Origin: Chthoniobacteraceae bacterium
Lineage (GTDB): Bacteria > Verrucomicrobiota > Verrucomicrobiia > Chthoniobacterales > Chthoniobacteraceae
Reading direction: 5' to 3'
NCBI GenBank assembly: GCA_049840595.1
Contig: JASGKO010000023.1
Coordinates: 100,911-164,910, forward strand
Length of the DNA stretch: 64,000 nt
Numbering within the stretch: the first letter of the stretch is position 1; the number at the start of each line of letters is the position of its first letter. Below are positions 20,070 to 62,041 of the stretch, one piece after another. The position numbers were made by a program, and so were the translations under genes. The notes beneath the pieces are model-generated. The model ran no database searches. It saw only the letters and a program-made list of their open reading frames with translations, and had not been told where the DNA came from.

Positions 20070-20121
20070 CGAGGCTGGAGCCTCGCAGACAATGGCGTTA
20101 CCAGGCTGGAGCCTGGTAACG
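20070..20121 (+). terminator. Tandem GC-rich hairpins after the prfB stop, each with loop TGGA: cgaggc-tgga-gcctcg and cgttaccaggc-tgga-gcctggtaacg. Putative terminator; also part of a repeated module.
   Basis: Perfect 6-bp and 11-bp stems by reverse-complement inspection. The same module recurs at about 23461-23515 and 24171-24230. Confidence 0.55.
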
Positions 20122-20129
20122 AGGGGGCG

Positions 20130-20531
20130 TCAGTAGCCCAAAATCGGTGGATAGCTTGAGAAAAATGAAGGTCCTGCTTCTGTTTCTTCTACAACTACCG
20201 TGATGGTCTTTGCTTTTCGGATTTCTTGTATTAGCAGTAGCGTAGCGATGGTTCGAAAATCCCGAGAATTTGCCCCGGCGCTAACCTCATATTCGTTCCC
20301 ATCCACGGCGAAGGAAACTTCGCCATTGTATAAGTCAGCCTTCAGATTTTTGAGCCCAACCGCTGACAATTCTTTTTGAACATTCCCGGCTTGCGCAGCC
20401 GTTAAGACAAACAGCGGGCTAAACAAGATCGACAGGAGTAAGGCTGTTTTCCGTAGCTCGAAAAACGATCCCCATGCTGTCGCTGTCTTTTCCCGTGCAA
20501 AAAATATTTTGGGAGCCAAGTTAGTTTTCAT
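20130..20531 (-). CDS. Small hypothetical secreted/membrane-anchored protein in lower-GC DNA
   Basis: 133-aa ORF with hydrophobic segment LLLSILFSPLFVLTAAQA. Flanked by prfB-end repeat copies A and D. Confidence 0.45.
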   Translation of the reverse strand: MKTNLAPKIFFAREKTATAWGSFFELRKTALLLSILFSPLFVLTAAQAGNVQKELSAVGLKNLKADLYNGEVSFAVDGNEYEVSAGANSRDFRTIATLLLIQEIRKAKTITVVVEETEAGPSFFSSYPPILGY

Positions 20532-23315: not shown

Positions 23316-23515
23316 GTGAAGGACCACCGCATCGGCGTCGAGACGAGCAACGTGCAGGCCGTGATGGACGGCGACATCGACGAGTTTATCGAAGGCAAGC
23401 TGCGTGGGTGGACGGCGAAGAAGGGGCCGCAGAGCGACGACGACGTGCAGGCGCGGGGACGAGGCTGGAGCCTCGCGGACCACGGCGTTACCAGGCTGGA
23501 GCCTGGTAACGAGGG
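23316..23515 (+). repeat. Diverged duplicate of the last ~44 codons of prfB ([44 protein letters not shown]; stop mutated to CAG) plus the dual TGGA-loop hairpin module
   Basis: About 90% nt identity to 19925-20125, with mostly synonymous third-position differences. Confidence 0.8.
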
Positions 23516-24140: not shown

Positions 24141-24230
24141 CAACAGAGCGACGACGACGTGTAGGCGCGGGGACGAGGCTGGAGCCTCGCGGACCGTGGC
24201 GTTACCAGGCTGGAGCCTGGTAACGAGGGG
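24141..24230 (+). repeat. Fourth copy of the prfB terminus (QSDDDV, TAG) plus dual hairpin module
   Basis: Near-identical to 20041-20127. Confidence 0.8.
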
Positions 24231-24292
24231 GGTGCTCTTCGCATCGCTATTCGAGTTGGAACTATTGAACGTGGCCTGCTAGAGAGGAAGGC

Positions 24293-56491: not shown

Positions 56492-57907
56492 ATGACCTGG
56501 CCCCGCGCTTTACTCATTCTTACCGTCTTCTGGGCCTTGATCTTCCTGCCCGCGCTGGGGACGACCGAATACAAGGGCGAAGAACCACGCCGGGTGCTGC
56601 CGGCGGTTTCGATGCTGCAAACGGGCAACCTTGTGGTGCCGATGCTCTGCGGCGAGCCTTTTCTCCGAAAACCGCCGCTGGTGAATTGGTTGATCGCGGC
56701 GTCTTTCCACCTCACCGGCAAGCAGAATGAATGGGCGGCCCGCCTGCCCTCGGTATTGGCCGTGTGGCTGCTGGGCGCGGGAATTTTTCTCTTTTGCCGC
56801 CGCTGGCTGGGCGTGGAAACGGCACTGGTCGCGGCAATGATCGCGATCACCCATGTGGGGATGGTGGACAAGGGACGCATGGCTGAGATCGAGGCCGAAT
56901 ACATCGCACTCTCCGGCCTGGCCACGGTGGGTTGGCTGGCGCTACATCGGCGGAAGGCATCCCCCTGGCAGCAATGGCTGGTGGCCGGAACGTTGCTGGG
57001 TATCAGCTTTCTGGCGAAAGGGCCGGTCAATTTGATCTTCTTTTACCCCGTGGTGCTCGGGGTGCTGATCGCGGAACGGGAGTGGCGCACGCTCTTCTCC
57101 CCCGCCCATCTCGCGGGGCTCGTGGTGATGTTCGGCATCTTCGCCCTGTGGGCCGTGCCCTACTGGCATCAGGCCCCGGCCAACGCCGCCCAGGTGATGG
57201 CGCACCAGACGGCGGGCCGGTTCAGCAGCAACTTCAATTTCTCCAACTGGGTGCTGGCGATCCCGCGCGGCTTGAGCAACTTCCTGCCCTGGGTGCTGCT
57301 GGCCCCCCTGTGCTGGCGGCGGACGGTCCTGGAACGCGAAGGCACATGGTATGTGGCGACACGAAACACGAGCGTCGCCCTCTTTCTCATCATCCTCCTA
57401 CTCCCCGGCATGCTCCCGCGCTATTCCCAGCCGCTCCTGATTCCGATGAGCCTGTTGATTGCCATCGCCTTGCAGGATGCCCCGCAGGTTCTACTGGAGC
57501 GCTGGAAGAAATTCCTGCCCTGGGCCCGCCAGGCCACGCCAGTCTCGCTCGTGCTGGCGAGTTCGGCCCTCATTTGCGTGGGAATCCTGGTCTATGCCAT
57601 CGCGGCCCTCACCGTGGTGAGCAGCCATGACAATCTGCGTCCCTTGGGGCGGAGCATCAACAAAGCCGCGGAGGCCACGAAGCCGCTCTACCTGCTCGAC
57701 TGCGGCTACCAGCCCTTCTTCGCCTATGTGACCCAGCGGTGCATCTATCTCCAGCAACGGGAGGACCTCCCGCCCGGTGCCGCCCAGATTTTGCTCAGCA
57801 ATCGCGAGTGGAAAAGGCTCCACAAAGCCGATGCCAGCTACGAGGTGAAAAAGACGATCCCCATCGACAAGAAAGATCAGCTCTTTTTGGTCACCCGGAA
57901 AGCGTGA
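56492..57907 (+). CDS. ArnT/PMT-like glycosyltransferase (GT39/GT83), a candidate lipid A or glycan modifier
   Basis: About 11 TM segments; N-terminal loop and periplasmic C-terminal domain typical of ArnT-like GTs. Confidence 0.75.
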   Translation: MTWPRALLILTVFWALIFLPALGTTEYKGEEPRRVLPAVSMLQTGNLVVPMLCGEPFLRKPPLVNWLIAASFHLTGKQNEWAARLPSVLAVWLLGAGIFLFCRRWLGVETALVAAMIAITHVGMVDKGRMAEIEAEYIALSGLATVGWLALHRRKASPWQQWLVAGTLLGISFLAKGPVNLIFFYPVVLGVLIAEREWRTLFSPAHLAGLVVMFGIFALWAVPYWHQAPANAAQVMAHQTAGRFSSNFNFSNWVLAIPRGLSNFLPWVLLAPLCWRRTVLEREGTWYVATRNTSVALFLIILLLPGMLPRYSQPLLIPMSLLIAIALQDAPQVLLERWKKFLPWARQATPVSLVLASSALICVGILVYAIAALTVVSSHDNLRPLGRSINKAAEATKPLYLLDCGYQPFFAYVTQRCIYLQQREDLPPGAAQILLSNREWKRLHKADASYEVKKTIPIDKKDQLFLVTRKA

Positions 57908-57953
57908 TGGAATCGATTCTTTCACGTGGAAAAATTCCCGCCATACTGGCGGC

Positions 57954-58980
57954 GTGAAGTTTTCCCCGCTCCGCCCTGTCTTTCTCGCTGCCTGCTTTTT
58001 GCTGGCCGGAAAAGGATACGCGGATGACTACCTGCTCGGAGCCGATCTTTCGAGCACGCCCCAGAGCGAAGCACGCGGGGTGAAATTCTCCGCCAACAGG
58101 ACGTCGAACGATCTCCTCCACCTGCTGCACGAGCACGGGTTCAATTGGGTGCGGCTGCGTATCTTCCATGATCCAAAGGCTGCAGGCGGCTATTCGCCAG
58201 AGGGCTACTGCGACCTCGGGCATACGCTGGCGATGGCCCGCCGAATCCGATCGGCAGGCATGAAGCTCCTGCTCGATTTCCATTACAGCGACACGTGGGC
58301 CGATCCGGCCCACCAGACCAAGCCGGCCGCTTGGAAGGACAAGCACGGCCGGGAATTGGAAACCGCCGTCCACGACTACACCGCACACGTCCTTACGGCC
58401 CTGAAAAAACAGGGCACCCCACCCCGACCTGGTGCAAACCGGCAACGAGATCGGCCATGGCTTGCTCTGGCCCGACGGCCAGCCCTGGAAGGGCGGAAGC
58501 TGGGATGCCTTCACCGGTTTGTTGAAGGCCGCAATCCGCGCCGTTCGTGAAACGACGCCCCAGGCCAGGGTGATGCTCCACGTGGAAACCGGCGGGCGTA
58601 ACCGGGAAACACGCGAGTTCTTCGACCACCTCCGGGAACATCACGTCGCTTTCGACGTGATCGGCCTGTCATACTACCCGCGCTGGGATGGTCCGTTGGA
58701 AAACCTGCGGCAAAACCTCGCCGATCTCGCCACCCGCTACCCGCAGCCCATCGTGGTCGTGGAATACAGCGCGCCGCAACTGCGCGAGATCAACGATGCC
58801 GTCCACTCCCTCCCCCATGGAAAGGGCCTCGGCAGTTTCATCTGGGAACCCGCGCACTGGGGCGGCCCCGCCCTTTTCCAGAAAGACGGCCGGGCCAGGC
58901 CCGCGCTGGAGCTTTATCCGCAAATGGCGAAGGACTACGGACGGCGCAGAGGTCGTTCGCTGCAGCGCATAGATAGTTAG
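57954..58980 (+). CDS. Glycoside hydrolase family 53 (endo-beta-1,4-galactanase), frameshifted at the C/A homopolymer region about 58404-58425. Its 3' end runs into the attC-like repeat.
   Basis: Signal peptide. GH53 motifs FNWVRLRIF and DLVQTGNEIG (second ORF, 58432-58980). Confidence 0.7.
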
Positions 58981-58988
58981 GCCACAGG

Positions 58989-59312
58989 CTATCCACCGCG
59001 CTCATCATACCACCCCTGCGGGTCATCAAGATCAATATCCTCTCCTTCTTGCATGTCGCCCAGGTGCCAGCCCTCTCGCTTGCAGAGTGCCGCCAGTTCT
59101 TTGATGTGGTTGAAGCCGCCGTGCGTGTAAATGTCCTGAACTGTCTCGTCCTCTGTGGTCAGCTCCAGACGGAATCCGCCTTCAACGGGCAACGCCGCCT
59201 CAGTGAGTGACTCCCACTCAAGTCCGCGAAATGCACCATCGAACTTGCGTGTGACATCAGCGATCTCGCCAAGCCCCTCTCCGTCATTGTGGACAAGAAG
59301 ATTCCAAGACAT
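58989..59312 (-). CDS. Small acidic hypothetical protein, integron cassette-like ORF
   Basis: 107-aa ORF. On its coding strand it is bounded by GTTAGGC 13 nt upstream of the ATG and GCCTAAC 6 nt after the stop. Confidence 0.4.
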   Translation of the reverse strand: MSWNLLVHNDGEGLGEIADVTRKFDGAFRGLEWESLTEAALPVEGGFRLELTTEDETVQDIYTHGGFNHIKELAALCKREGWHLGDMQEGEDIDLDDPQGWYDERGG

Positions 59313-59321
59313 AACGTGTGA

Positions 59322-59388
59322 TGTAGCCTAACAACCCAAGCTCGGCGACAGGCGCAAGCCTGTTCGCTGCAGCGTCTAGGCGTTGCAG
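59322..59388 (-). repeat. attC-like imperfect palindrome. Cassette-strand sequence: cctgcaac GCCTAGAC gctgcagcgaacagg cttgcg cctgtcgccgagcttggg tt GTTAGGC.
   Basis: Canonical core GTTAGGC (plus strand shows GCCTAAC at 59326-59332). Imperfect inverted repeats with unpaired bases. The internal box gttcgctgcagcg recurs at 58949-58961 beside a plus-strand GTTAGGC (58976-58982). Confidence 0.45.
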
Positions 59389-59825
59389 GGATCGGATTTT
59401 GGTGGTTCATGGACTGCGAGGAAGAGTGTCGGGGCACCGGGAACGCGAAAGATGCCAATTGCACGAAGACAGCGGACTGCCAACGCCGAAAATACCTGCG
59501 CGTCGCTGTCAGATGCAGCGATGCCGGGGCTGGTGAAGACGCGAAAACCCGTGAGGTTCTGGAGTGACTGGAGACTCTTCGAAGCCTCACGCGCGCGAAG
59601 CGGAAAATCCTCATTGGCCCACGCCCACAGCCAGGAGTGGCGCTCAGGGCTGTGCGTGCCGATGGGTGTGATCGGGAAGGAATGATCTCCGATCCGCAAC
59701 GTGCAATCGGCAAGATCGTAGTGCCACTGGTCGCTACCGAGAATTCGCTGCTGGAATCGCGGTTGGAGGTGTGCAAGTTCGTCACGGCAGGCAGCAACGA
59801 ACGCGGAAAACTGCTCGTCCGACAT
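59376..59825 (-). CDS. Hypothetical protein, first integron cassette-like ORF
   Basis: 149-aa ORF from ATG 59825 (the ORF track extends antisense into the integrase fragment). Its stop codon lies inside the attC-like element. Confidence 0.4.
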   Translation of the reverse strand: MSDEQFSAFVAACRDELAHLQPRFQQRILGSDQWHYDLADCTLRIGDHSFPITPIGTHSPERHSWLWAWANEDFPLRAREASKSLQSLQNLTGFRVFTSPGIAASDSDAQVFSALAVRCLRAIGIFRVPGAPTLFLAVHEPPKSDPCNA

Positions 59826-59924
59826 GGAGCTTGATGTCGGCGACGTGCTGCAAACAGGACAATTGGAAGCGTCGTGCATCAGATACGGGTAGCAGCGCCT
59901 TGCGAGAAGTAGCTCCCAAAAATA

Positions 59925-60020
59925 GGGTCTAATCCAGCGGTGTTTTGGGGTATAATCTGGCGTCGTTTTTCGATCCTCAGAGAACTCTTCATTTTCTTCG
60001 GGTATAATCCGCTTGTTTTG
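59925..60020 (+). promoter_or_regulatory. attI-like / promoter region: three imperfect ~22-bp direct repeats (gggtctaatccagcggtgtttt, ggggtataatctggcgtcgttttt, cgggtataatccgcttgttttg), two of them carrying TATAAT
   Basis: Repeats found by eye at 59925-59946, 59947-59970 and 59999-60020. Located between the integrase fragment and the first cassette-like ORF. Confidence 0.35.
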
Positions 60021-60053
60021 AGCCTGACCTGCCGGAGATGGTCGCACCCTTGA

Positions 60054-60330
60054 TTTCGGGCAATCTGTCAAACTCTCCTCCGGGCAGCAAGCCAAAAACT
60101 GCTCGATCAGGTGCGGGGTGTCTTCCGCCTCAAGCACTATTCGCTGCGAACGGAAAAGACGGATGTCGATTGGATTAAACGCCTCATCGTTTTTCACAAT
60201 AAGCGGCATCCCCGCGAAATGACCGAGGCGGAGGTGAGCACCTTTCTCACGCCTCTGGCGGTGGAGGGCCATCTTTCCGTCTCCACGCATAATCAGGCGT
60301 TGAGTGCGATTCTTTCGCCTCGTTCCCACA
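60054..60330 (+). pseudogene. intI: Remnant of an integron-integrase-like tyrosine recombinase (N-terminal ~90 residues only)
   Basis: ...SQKLLDQVRGVFRLKHYSLRTEKTDVDWIKRLIVFHNKRHPREMTEAEVSTFLTPLAVEGHLSVSTHNQALSAILS aligns residue-by-residue with the IntI N-terminus ([23 protein letters not shown].W...FIRFH...VSVSTHRQALAALL). Homology stops at about 60325 where two hairpins begin. No catalytic domain. Confidence 0.7.
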
Positions 60331-60434
60331 CTCTGTGTGGGAACGCATCTGTCCGGGACACTCCGTGTCCCTGGCAATTCCTGGCGTCCAGGCGGTTAAA
60401 TATTTTGGCGATCAGCCCGACCGGCACGAGGCCG

Positions 60435-60980
60435 CTAGATCATTCCCAGCTGCATCTTGCCCACTTCGCTGATCATGCCCTGATTCCACGGCGGGTCCCA
60501 GACGAGCTCGACCAGCGCATCCTTCACGCCGGAGAGCGCGAGGATTTTGCTCTGCGCTTCGGCGCAAATGGTCGGGCCCATGCCGCAGCCGGGCGCGGTG
60601 AGCGTCATTTTTACATTCACCTTGGCGCCGTCGCTTTCCTGCTCGACGCGGCAATCATAGACGAGGCCGAGATCGACGATGTTGACCGGGATTTCCGGAT
60701 CGTAGCAGGTCTTGAGCTGGTCCCAGACGGTCTTCTCATCGAGCGGACCATCGGAAGCCGCCGACGCTTCGGCCTTGGGCGCGGTTGGCTCGATCCCGAG
60801 CGCGTCCACATTCTGCTCGGTAATGCGGGCAAGGCCGAAATGTCCGGCCACGGTATAGCTCCCCCCGAGGGACTGGGTGATGATGACGCTCGCTCCCGCG
60901 GGGATGGTGATGACCTGTCCGCTGGGAATCTGAATGGCCTCGCAATCGCGAGTGAGTTCTTTGGGCTGATTTTCGTACAT
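60435..60980 (-). CDS. SufT-like Fe-S assembly protein with a C-terminal DUF59/MIP18 domain
   Basis: VWDQLKTCYDPEIPVNIVDLGLVYD...TLTAPGCGMGPTI...VELVWDPPW. Confidence 0.65.
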   Translation of the reverse strand: MYENQPKELTRDCEAIQIPSGQVITIPAGASVIITQSLGGSYTVAGHFGLARITEQNVDALGIEPTAPKAEASAASDGPLDEKTVWDQLKTCYDPEIPVNIVDLGLVYDCRVEQESDGAKVNVKMTLTAPGCGMGPTICAEAQSKILALSGVKDALVELVWDPPWNQGMISEVGKMQLGMI

Positions 60981-60989
60981 GGAAAAAAA

Positions 60990-61481
60990 CTAGGAATGAG
61001 GATTGAGCACGACCTTCACCTTTTTCCCTGCCGCACCGGCAAAGGAGTCGAACAGGGAATTACCCACCGGTTGGGCGGGAGCCGGAGCGGGGGCCGTCGG
61101 TTTCCCCTGCCCCTCGGTGAGGGCCGAGCGGAGCGCACTCTCCACCAGCTGCGCGCAGTGAATCTTCATTGGTGGCAATGCGCCGAGCGGCGCGGAAAGA
61201 TCGCTCCCCGACATGGTGAGCGCCTCATCCGCCGTCTTGCCGGCGATCAACTCCGTGGCCACGCTGGCCACCGCAATTGCGGTCTCGCAGCCAAAGGTCT
61301 GGAACGTCGCGCGGTCAATCACCTTGCGCCCGTTCTCCTCCTTGAACTTGATCCACATCCGCAGCATGTCGCCGCAATCGGCGCTGCCCACAGTGCCCAC
61401 GGCATCGGCATTCTCCATCTCGCCGAGATTCTTGGGATTGGAAATCGCCTGCTGAATTTTCTGCTGAAGGTCTTCGCTCAT
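60990..61481 (-). CDS. NifU/IscU-like Fe-S cluster scaffold protein (N-terminal domain type)
   Basis: GSADCGDMLRMWIK ... TFQTFGCETAIA conserved Cys pattern. Confidence 0.7.
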   Translation of the reverse strand: MSEDLQQKIQQAISNPKNLGEMENADAVGTVGSADCGDMLRMWIKFKEENGRKVIDRATFQTFGCETAIAVASVATELIAGKTADEALTMSGSDLSAPLGALPPMKIHCAQLVESALRSALTEGQGKPTAPAPAPAQPVGNSLFDSFAGAAGKKVKVVLNPHS

Positions 61482-61492
61482 AAGCCAGGTCG

Positions 61493-62041
61493 ATTACTCC
61501 AGGTGATAGCGCGGCAGGCTCGGATCGATCTCCTGCGCCCATTGATCCACCCCCCCAGTGAGGCTCTTCACATTGGTAAACCCGTGCCCGGCAAAATACG
61601 CCGCCGCATCCATGCTGCGGATGCCGTGATGGCACACCATCACCACCGACTCGGTGCGGTCCCAGCTCGAAGCATTTCCTGCATCATCTCCTGGGTGAAA
61701 AGCTGGGCCCCGGCGATATGCACCGCGTCAAATTCCTCGCGGGTGCGCACGTCGATCAGCTTGGGAACGTTCGGAGTCTTGAGCAATGCGTCGAGTTCGG
61801 TCGCGCTGATCTGCATCTGCTGGTCGGCTTGATGGCTCGATTGCAGAAACTCGATCACGTCATCCACCGGCAAATCGTTATTGCGGGCGCAGACCTGGGC
61901 CAGTGTCTCGGTCGGCTGGAAGCCGCAACTGGAGCAGCCGCCGATGTGATACTGGCGGAACAGCGCGCGCTGAGCACCGGGAAAGCGCTCCAGCAACTCG
62001 GCCATCGTCAAATTCGGATCAATCTCAAGCGTGGTGGACAT
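61493..62041 (-). CDS. DUF1858 (redox-active disulfide) plus rhodanese-domain fusion protein, frameshifted near 61690
   Basis: MSTTLEIDPNLTMAELLERFPGAQRALFRQYHIGGCSSCGF (DUF1858-like). Rhodanese active-site loop VCHHGIRS is readable only in the +1 frame of the C-terminal segment. Confidence 0.55.

Follow-up and report, generated by a model that had tools for sequence, protein, structure and literature searches.

A very probable integron remnant with two surviving cassette genes in a Chthoniobacteraceae genome

In Xanthomonas, integrons located downstream of ilvD show loss of intI together with a stabilised cassette array, according to a preprint (bioRxiv 10.1101/2025.06.18.660453). [quoted passage not shown] In the present study, a 64-kb stretch of DNA from a metagenome-assembled genome (MAG) of the Chthoniobacteraceae (Verrucomicrobiota), hereafter the window, was analysed, and an integron remnant of approximately 1.4 kb (58937-60318) was identified in the interval toward which a GH53 galactanase gene and a SufT-like gene converge with their 3' ends. 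We consider it highly probable that this block represents the eroded platform end of a chromosomal integron. As read from the sequence and the list of open reading frames (ORFs), the order from left to right is the GH53 gene, a 107-aa ORF, a DUF6882 ORF, a spacer, the intI remnant, two hairpins and the SufT-like gene. A first-pass annotation, made from the letters of the window, had proposed a relic integron here, with an IntI fragment, attI-like repeats and two cassette ORFs, and every feature that it listed was found at the position it had given.

Several similarities and differences were observed between this locus and the described systems. Like the sedentary integrons of Xanthomonas, as they are presented in that preprint, the remnant lies beside housekeeping genes, its intI is inactivated by truncation and frameshift, and its cassettes are of unknown function and stable after loss of the integrase; unlike them, it belongs to another phylum and is reduced to two cassettes; the putative attI core and each of the attC sites show damage, and intI has been deleted over three quarters of its length. 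The CALIN share with it cassettes with attC sites, the lack of a functional integrase and, in some cases, an adjoining intI pseudogene, but they contain at least two attC sites by definition, whereas one full-length site and one half-site are present in the window. Moreover, the pseudogenes of Cury et al. matched the C-terminal signature of IntI (PMC4889954), whereas the remnant keeps the N-terminal domain only and would therefore escape a screen of that design. Two integrons from other assemblies, labelled L114 (Limisphaerales MAG CRY1-m2-bin11) and L209 (GCA_038226705.1), contain an attC array, a GCCTAAC core, attI and a divergent intI in the same order and orientation and with the same attC arms; they differ from the remnant in that the catalytic domain is retained (with frameshifts in both assemblies), the attC sites are canonical, each arm having a 5-nt spacer, and the GCCTAAC of attI is intact. 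Because its intI has neither PF00589 nor IntI_Cterm, both of which are IntegronFinder signatures, the remnant does not qualify as a complete integron, and it lies outside the definitions of In0 and CALIN as well. Since the C-terminal signature of IntI is absent and fewer than two intact attC sites are present, standard pipelines would probably miss this locus, which illustrates the under-counting of integron relics. It is a further, unusually eroded example from the Verrucomicrobiota of a documented kind and not a new kind of element.

The integrase remnant and the attC sites

First, the integrase gene is considered. An intI pseudogene remnant occupies 60038-60317 on the plus strand and consists of ATG 60038 with 20 codons (ending in GSKPK), a +1 frameshift and 73 further codons. 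These 73 codons (60099-60317, from LLDQVRG to NQALSAILS) matched Pfam PF13495 (E 1.2e-21), and in NCBIfam the integrase fragment matched integron-integrase families only (NF011946, E 1e-20; TIGR02249, E 4e-20), with scores under the full-length cut-offs because only 73-90 residues survive. No Xer family was matched in NCBIfam at E<=1, and a search of all PDB sequences at E<=10 returned no Xer structure, the sole match being VchIntIA/IntI4 (2A3V, residues 8-74 of 320, E 7e-11). The comparison of IntI with XerC/D, which had been set beforehand as a check, thus showed that the fragment fits the IntI models and not XerC/D. The N-terminal half of the L114 IntI matched 60069-60314 in tblastn (52% identity, E 2e-23), the identity to intI genes beside attC arrays was 52-57%, and the N-terminal domain was 48-57% identical to that of L114 and L209. 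No tblastn match to the C-terminal half of the L114 IntI, and neither the catalytic domain (PF00589) nor its additional segment specific to IntI, was found anywhere in the 64 kb, and intI is missing from approximately residue 94 onwards. The homology stops at 60314-60318, near residue 93 of roughly 320, in agreement with the earlier proposal that the gene is truncated after about 90 residues. The frame proposed at that time, 60054-60325, does carry the IntI homology; it has no start codon, and the true ATG (60038) lies in another frame, in which the gene begins with MVAPLISGNLSNSPPGSKPK. An extra A in the A5 run at 60094-60098 shifts intI into the LLDQV frame, and removing one A gives SKPKLLDQV, the consensus of two homologues (P0001 and P0004). 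Among the best 120 homologues listed, 43 columns are at least 90% conserved, and five of them are altered in the remnant, including a Y to D and a Q to H change. The end of homology at 60314, the lack of the C-terminal half and the altered conserved columns together indicate that the gene is a pseudogene in decay, truncated and with its 5' end preserved, and this truncation is independent of the homopolymer frameshifts.

Two side observations concern the same gene. The best 120 database matches to the IntI fragment (P0001-P0120) are all 80-158 aa in length and comprise the N-terminal domain only, and several of these proteins are encoded on contigs of 30 kb to 5 Mb; their shortness may come from a biased search tool, from contig ends or from a true abundance of truncated intI genes. 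In addition, an open frame of 573 aa (60111-61832, plus strand) begins at a GTG within the intI remnant and extends across the suf genes in the antisense direction. This frame is spurious, of a kind typical of high-GC DNA, and could mislead gene callers toward a long "integrase-like" protein.

Second, the elements behind the two cassette ORFs belong to a widespread attC family. The 13-nt box GTTCGCTGCAGCG, which had been described as common to both elements, occurs in exactly two copies (58955 and 59362), one behind each small ORF, and the heptamers GCCTAAC and GTTAGGC occur once each in the window, both at the remnant. A search of species-representative genomes with the pattern GTTCGCTGCAGCG-N(1-10)-TAGGC returned at least 120 loci (L001-L120). 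The matches listed are mostly from Verrucomicrobiota and Planctomycetota, with some from Acidobacteriota, Cyanobacteria and others, and they include Chthoniobacter flavus Ellin428 and several Chthoniobacteraceae MAGs. Many of the listed loci contain 2-3 copies of the family per 8 kb, spaced 0.4-1.3 kb apart, and an IntI relative is encoded at 13 of them; in L114, three attC sites, the first cassette, the GCCTAAC core, approximately 100 nt of attI and the divergent intI are observed. The 74 complete sites gave the consensus GCCTAAC - GACCC - AAGCTCAGCGAC - (13-103 nt) - GT(T)CGCTG(C)AGCG - CATG - GTTAGGC, and they share R' RYYYAAC, spacers of 7 and 5 nt, two bulges on the 3' arm of the L box, separated by a 6-bp stem, and a variable terminal structure. 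In the attC bottom strand as it has been described, extrahelical bases are located at approximately positions 16 and 23-24 on the arm facing the AAC triplet, a 6-bp stem separates them, and the spacers measure 5-6 nt (Nivina et al., PMC5027507); the family sites show the same layout. The base of the terminal stem covaries, with 61 double changes compared with 15 in column shuffles (none of 500 as high). The outer bases of R' vary (GCCT, GCCG, ATCT, GCAG and others) and AAC is invariant, which is the footprint expected from cassette exchange at the A|C bond.

Third, one of the two elements is recovered as a full-length member of this family. A covariance model, R1, was built on 68 distinct sites of the family, whose terminal structures had been trimmed internally to keep variation in length from dominating. 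The site attC1 (59326-59381, with its bottom strand on the plus strand) was matched over its full length with 45.4 bits and a rough E-value of 4.6e-11, the sole match below E 0.01 in the 64 kb with filters off; the next match (15.8 bits, E 0.05) is an unrelated repeated hairpin. The covariance-model check suggested in the first-pass annotation is thereby positive for attC1, with the family-specific R1 used rather than the generic model of IntegronFinder. Because sites outside the training set, in L208 and L209, scored 46, 41, 28 and 20 bits, attC1 lies within the score range of the family. The palindrome between the two ORFs is attC-like, as had been proposed, and the actual site measures 56 nt, not 67 bp. 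Its orientation, with the bottom strand on the plus strand, matches cassettes read on the minus strand.

The architecture of attC1 combines conserved and damaged parts. The 5' arm consists of R' GCCTAAC, the spacer AACCCAA and L' GCTCGGCGAC, followed by a 12-nt terminal hairpin (AGGC-GCAA-GCCT), and the 3' arm is made up of L'' GT(T)CGCTG(C)AGC, in which two bases are extrahelical, and G-TCTAGGC. Folded in isolation, the site forms an R box of 7 bp from which a C bulges, a bulge of 7 nt on one side only and an L stem, kept with one G-T wobble, in which the T and C bulges are retained, which answers the earlier suggestion to look for extrahelical bases. In attC1 and in the family, the 3' arm of the plus strand carries the bulged C at 16'' and, 6 bp away from it, the bulged T at 22''/23''; the first of these bases is a C and not the usual G. 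The '' arm of attC1 reads GCG-TCTAGGC, compared with GCG-CATG-GTTAGGC in the family consensus, so that the spacer and the GT of GTT have been lost in a net 4-nt deletion. R' is intact; R'' pairs over 7 bp only with the bulged C, and GTT pairs with AAC only by this bulging. The central spacer of the 5' arm measures 7 nt and that of the 3' arm 0-1 nt, compared with 7 and 5 nt in the family, and in this respect attC1 fails as a canonical site. The heptamer GTTGCAG just past attC1 was considered as the true R'' and rejected, its complement being absent upstream.

The second element, attC2 (58937-58982, bottom strand on the plus strand), has lost its R'/L' half. It contains part of the variable terminal structure, L'' GTTCGCTGCAGCG (58955-58967), the spacer CATAGATA, which is 8 nt long through a tandem 4-nt ATAG duplication, and R'' GTTAGGC (58976-58982), which reads GCCTAAC on the minus strand 6 nt past the stop codon of the second cassette ORF, as had been noted before. 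Local alignment to L071 and L059 starts abruptly at 58937, inside the terminal structure, with 43 of 47 positions identical and a 4-nt insertion. As a full site, attC2 fails with R1 (8.5 bits only), and no RYYYAAC partner was found within 150 nt upstream. The earlier assignment of this second element to attC holds for its family sequence and has to be restricted to the half-site. On the left border, nothing is missing from the GH53 protein up to and including the last of its conserved motifs (ALFxxxGRAxPxL), which ends just before the attC2 remnant; the GH53 ORF then reads 13 further codons into the remnant (tail GRRRGRSLQRIDS), and its TAG stop lies inside R'' GTTAGGC.

Some observations on the family as a whole are reported separately. 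A scan of 57500-61500 against Rfam at E<=10 returned only chance snoRNA and sRNA matches and nothing attC-like; to our knowledge, Rfam has no attC family, and this result carries no weight. A nearly invariant 24 nt is present in the family arms in at least 120 species genomes of several phyla (e.g. L018 5239-5331, L039 1488-3778 and L114 2064-3016). The "variable" terminal structure is 45 nt long in 51 of the 74 complete sites, most of these being close to CCGGCGCACGGGACGCAACGATTGCAACCGCGACGCTCCCGCCGG, and such conservation is unexpected for this part of attC. No paper on the box sequence GTTCGCTGCAGCG was found in the literature. It has been reported that attC types are shared along lines of environment rather than of phylogeny (PMC8352920).

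The attI region and the cassette genes

In the reading of 58400-61000, a non-coding spacer of approximately 210 bp separates the DUF6882 ORF from the integrase-like frame. Between the putative attI core and the start of intI, this spacer contains an attI-like region (59925-60019, plus strand) with three direct repeats of approximately 22 nt, namely GGGTCTAATCCAGCGGTGTTTT (59925-59946), GGGTATAATCTGGCGTCGTTTTT (59948-59970) and GGGTATAATCCGCTTGTTTT (60000-60019). The GGGTMTAATCYRSC..GTTTT pattern is matched at 59925, 59948 and 60000, compared with 0.12 matches expected, and such a result was obtained in none of 100 shuffles. Lineage-specific repeats are found at this position in intact integrons whose attC sites belong to this family (for example GGATTATATTGAATCGT, present four times in L048; also in L079 and L041), and by analogy the three repeats may be the former integrase-binding part of attI. 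In 10 intact integrons of the group, GCCTAAC lies 100-200 nt upstream of intI and is followed by such lineage-specific direct repeats. The remnant has GCCTTGC (59897-59903, plus strand) in place of GCCTAAC, and the cassette strand accordingly reads GCAAGGC (59903-59897) instead of G|TTAGGC. At the loci of DUF6882 homologues, ATTAGGC (L204), TTCAGGC (L201) and TTTAGTC (L205) are located approximately 20 nt before the ATG. Two alignments, the position and this analogy suggest that 59897-59903 is a mutated attI core, which would also mark the 5' boundary of the first cassette. The position and orientation of the putative attI are canonical, with three repeats and a core reading GCCTTGC; attI sequences are lineage-specific, hence there is no model for them, and BLAST of the attI spacer against all fetched loci returned chance 12-22-mers only. 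The first-pass annotation had also described TATAAT boxes in the three repeats and read them as part of a Pint/Pc region. The repeats themselves were recovered, TATAAT is present in only two of the three, and the Pint/Pc reading was dropped because a scan of 58800-60600 for sigma-70 promoters predicted none.

Both small minus-strand ORFs that had been proposed (59825-59376 and 59312-58989) exist in the ORF list. Cassette 1 encodes a DUF6882 protein of 167 aa (59376-59879, minus strand; PF21813, E 6e-27). The start previously given for it, 59825, is an internal Met, and the most likely start is ATG 59879 because the 18-residue extension MHDASNCPVCSTS.. is conserved in L201, L204 and L205. Its TAG stop falls inside R'' of attC1. 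Homologues of up to 82% identity were found, with ratios of nonsynonymous to synonymous substitution (dN/dS) of 0.11-0.20, and R1 gave no significant match on the contigs of the closest DUF6882 homologues (L201-L206).

Two side observations on this cassette gene were made. The extension MHDASNCPVCSTS.. (59826-59879, minus strand) carries a CPxC motif, and many database homologues are approximately 167 aa in length. In L204 (1757-2400), a DUF7668 gene is followed by a collapsed attC of approximately 35 nt that reads GCC-CATG-CGCTG-AAC...ATTAGGC, then by a DUF6882 gene with its stop codon within GCCTAG and by a degenerate attC; these decayed attC remnants belong to the same family as those of the window and were seen by eye only. 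This second decayed cassette pair, on an unrelated contig, suggests that a DUF6882 cassette has been fixed more than once.

Cassette 2 encodes a protein of 107 aa (58989-59312, minus strand) for which Pfam, NCBIfam and PADLOC gave no family. The cassette begins at G|TTAGGC (59332|59331), and this minus-strand GTTAGGC (59332-59326) is 13 nt before the ATG, as the first-pass annotation had it. The protein is identical to NCBI QM796_09315 of a Chthoniobacteraceae MAG. Homologues with 81-65% identity are cassettes flanked by family-type attC beside intI in L207, L208 and L209. L207 has a divergent intI fragment and an attI core reading GTTAGGC, after which the 81%-identical gene stands in second place among the cassettes, with attC on both sides; in L208 and L209, the homologue is preceded or followed by a family-type attC, and the intI of L209 has both domains. 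The dN/dS of cassette 2 relative to L208 is 0.10. An AlphaFold model of the protein is confident (pLDDT 88.6), and its search against PDB returned no fold match better than E 0.055 (TM 0.4-0.5). For both cassette proteins, PADLOC and Pfam at E<=10 yielded nothing beyond DUF6882, and tblastn against the 120 listed loci of the attC family gave no match. Both cassette ORFs are intact, and their families are under purifying selection overall, as judged from pairwise dN/dS values of 0.10-0.20.

Decay scenario and alternative origins

Herein, we propose a sequence of events by which an integron could have been reduced to this remnant. In the original layout, intI would have been read rightward, attI with integrase-binding repeats and a GTTAGGC core would have been located just upstream, and cassettes inserted at attI would have been read leftward. 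Deletions would have taken intI beyond approximately codon 93 on one side and, on the other, whatever part of the array lay past the midpoint of the second attC. What was left would thereby have been joined to the convergent housekeeping genes GH53 and sufT-like at their 3' ends. The comparisons show what each part is homologous to and how it is built; in which order the parts decayed, that recombination has been lost, that the ORFs are expressed and that the repeats bind IntI are our inferences. The two cassettes would be immobilised because there is no catalytic domain, the putative attI core has no AAC/GTT, the '' arm of attC1 is damaged and attC2 has no R'/L'. According to the requirements described in PMC5027507, attI x attC and attC x attC exchange should be impossible even with an integrase in trans. 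The array had already been described as apparently dead for lack of a catalytic domain, and this was borne out more thoroughly than claimed, in that attC1, attC2 and the putative attI core are damaged as well. The cassette genes would most likely be expressed as ordinary chromosomal genes, from any promoter activity that the former attI and the 5' region of intI may supply. Under this scenario, the Chthoniobacteraceae lineage would once have hosted an active integron, connected to a cassette pool with attC arms common to soil and freshwater Verrucomicrobiota, Planctomycetota, Acidobacteriota and Cyanobacteria. The locus would represent a fully dissected integron death, in which the integrase is truncated, the attI core mutated, one attC shortened and the other halved while the cargo genes survive; apart from this, it is an expected, ordinary kind of genomic fossil.

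Several points weigh against the reading as an integron eroded in place. First, R1 is a family-specific model with a trimmed terminal structure and rough E-values, used in place of the generic IntegronFinder model. Second, in wider genomic context, the minimum free energy of the attC1 bottom strand favours an alternative hairpin. Third, the closest DUF6882 homologues, in L201 and L205, have no recognisable family-type attC nearby. Fourth, the frameshifts of intI (A5) and of GH53 both lie in homopolymers and could stem from errors in assembling the MAG instead of being real lesions. Fifth, an intact intI might be present elsewhere in the source genome, outside the 64 kb, and act on attC1. Finally, the metagenome scan with the SufT-like protein returned 80 loci, all at most 68% identical, with no intI, GH53 or cassette ORF nearby and no shared synteny. 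Because the relatives of the SufT-like protein are so distant and share no synteny, decay in situ is inseparable from the acquisition of a truncated fragment.

As an extension of the reading as an eroded integron, we tentatively suggest, at well short of even confidence, that the locus is a snapshot of cassette domestication. Small lesions at the junctions of spacer and R'', namely the 4-nt deletion in attC1 and the 4-nt duplication in attC2, would then have locked two intact genes in place by striking the part of each site that is critical for recombination. The families of both genes are under purifying selection, and a DUF6882 cassette is likewise accompanied by collapsed attC sites of this family in L204, an unrelated contig. 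If this is true, the loss of attC as a recurrent, selected route to core genes could be traced through such loci, which would draw on a cassette pool with attC arms nearly identical across several phyla.

The alternative that retains some weight, and which we regard as unlikely, is the import of an already truncated integron piece between GH53 and suf, by illegitimate or homologous recombination or with a larger mobile element since lost. Such an import would be consistent with both ends abutting the 3' ends of convergent housekeeping genes without extra integron sequence, with the absence of an integron at the same locus in any relative, and with an attC family common to several phyla, which indicates much horizontal movement. 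However, no transposase genes, inverted repeats or target duplications were found at the borders, and the family is common in Chthoniobacteraceae, so that a resident integron is plausible; the comparators, at most 68% identical, are also too distant to inform on ancestry. The joining of an integron piece from another population or locus through near-identical attC repeats during assembly is considerably less probable still. The source is a MAG, the two nearby homopolymer frameshifts hint at an error-prone assembly and one junction falls inside an attC repeat, but to the left of 58937 there is unique coding sequence of GH53 without similarity to attC, leaving no shared repeat across the join, and the right junction is not in any repeat. 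GC content and gene density are continuous, and the GH53 ORF runs smoothly into the remnant. Finally, a XerC/D- or phage-type recombinase fragment beside repetitive extragenic palindromic (REP)-like or terminator palindromes that resemble attC by chance is barely credible, since, although PF13495 also occurs in non-integron tyrosine recombinases, many relatives are auto-annotated as XerD in databases and Rfam has no match in the region, two integron-integrase families are matched at approximately 1e-20 and Xer families not at all at E<=1, IntI4 is the sole match in PDB, and the palindromes belong to a family with full attC architecture that forms arrays beside intI genes.

Flanking genes and hairpins

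The GH53 galactanase gene (57954-58980, plus strand; Pfam PF07745) carries a frameshift near 58402-58425, where it is split into two overlapping frames at homopolymers (A6 / C4 / C4). The convergent SufT-like gene (60980-60435, minus strand) matches PF01883. Between this gene and the intI remnant, two hairpins are located at 60321-60345 and 60350-60376, with stems of 11 bp and 7-9 bp (z = -4.6 and -4.3). They are perfect or near-perfect and lie directly past the intI breakpoint, consistent with the earlier description that the IntI homology ends at a pair of hairpins, and they lie 58 nt downstream of the stop codon of the SufT-like gene. These hairpins are probably outside the integron and represent the native 3' region, or terminator, of the convergent suf operon. 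No copies of them were found elsewhere in the window or in the fetched loci, where BLAST returned chance 12-22-mers only; a repeated mobile element, considered as another explanation of the hairpins, has no support, the window holding no further copies. Unrelated to the integron, a REP-like hairpin of 24 nt with a perfect stem, GTTACCAGGCTCCAGCCTGGTAAC, is present in three identical copies (20097-20120, 23487-23510 and 24201-24224), compared with none expected, and the flanks of the first and third copies are also similar (20084-20135 and 24189-24237).

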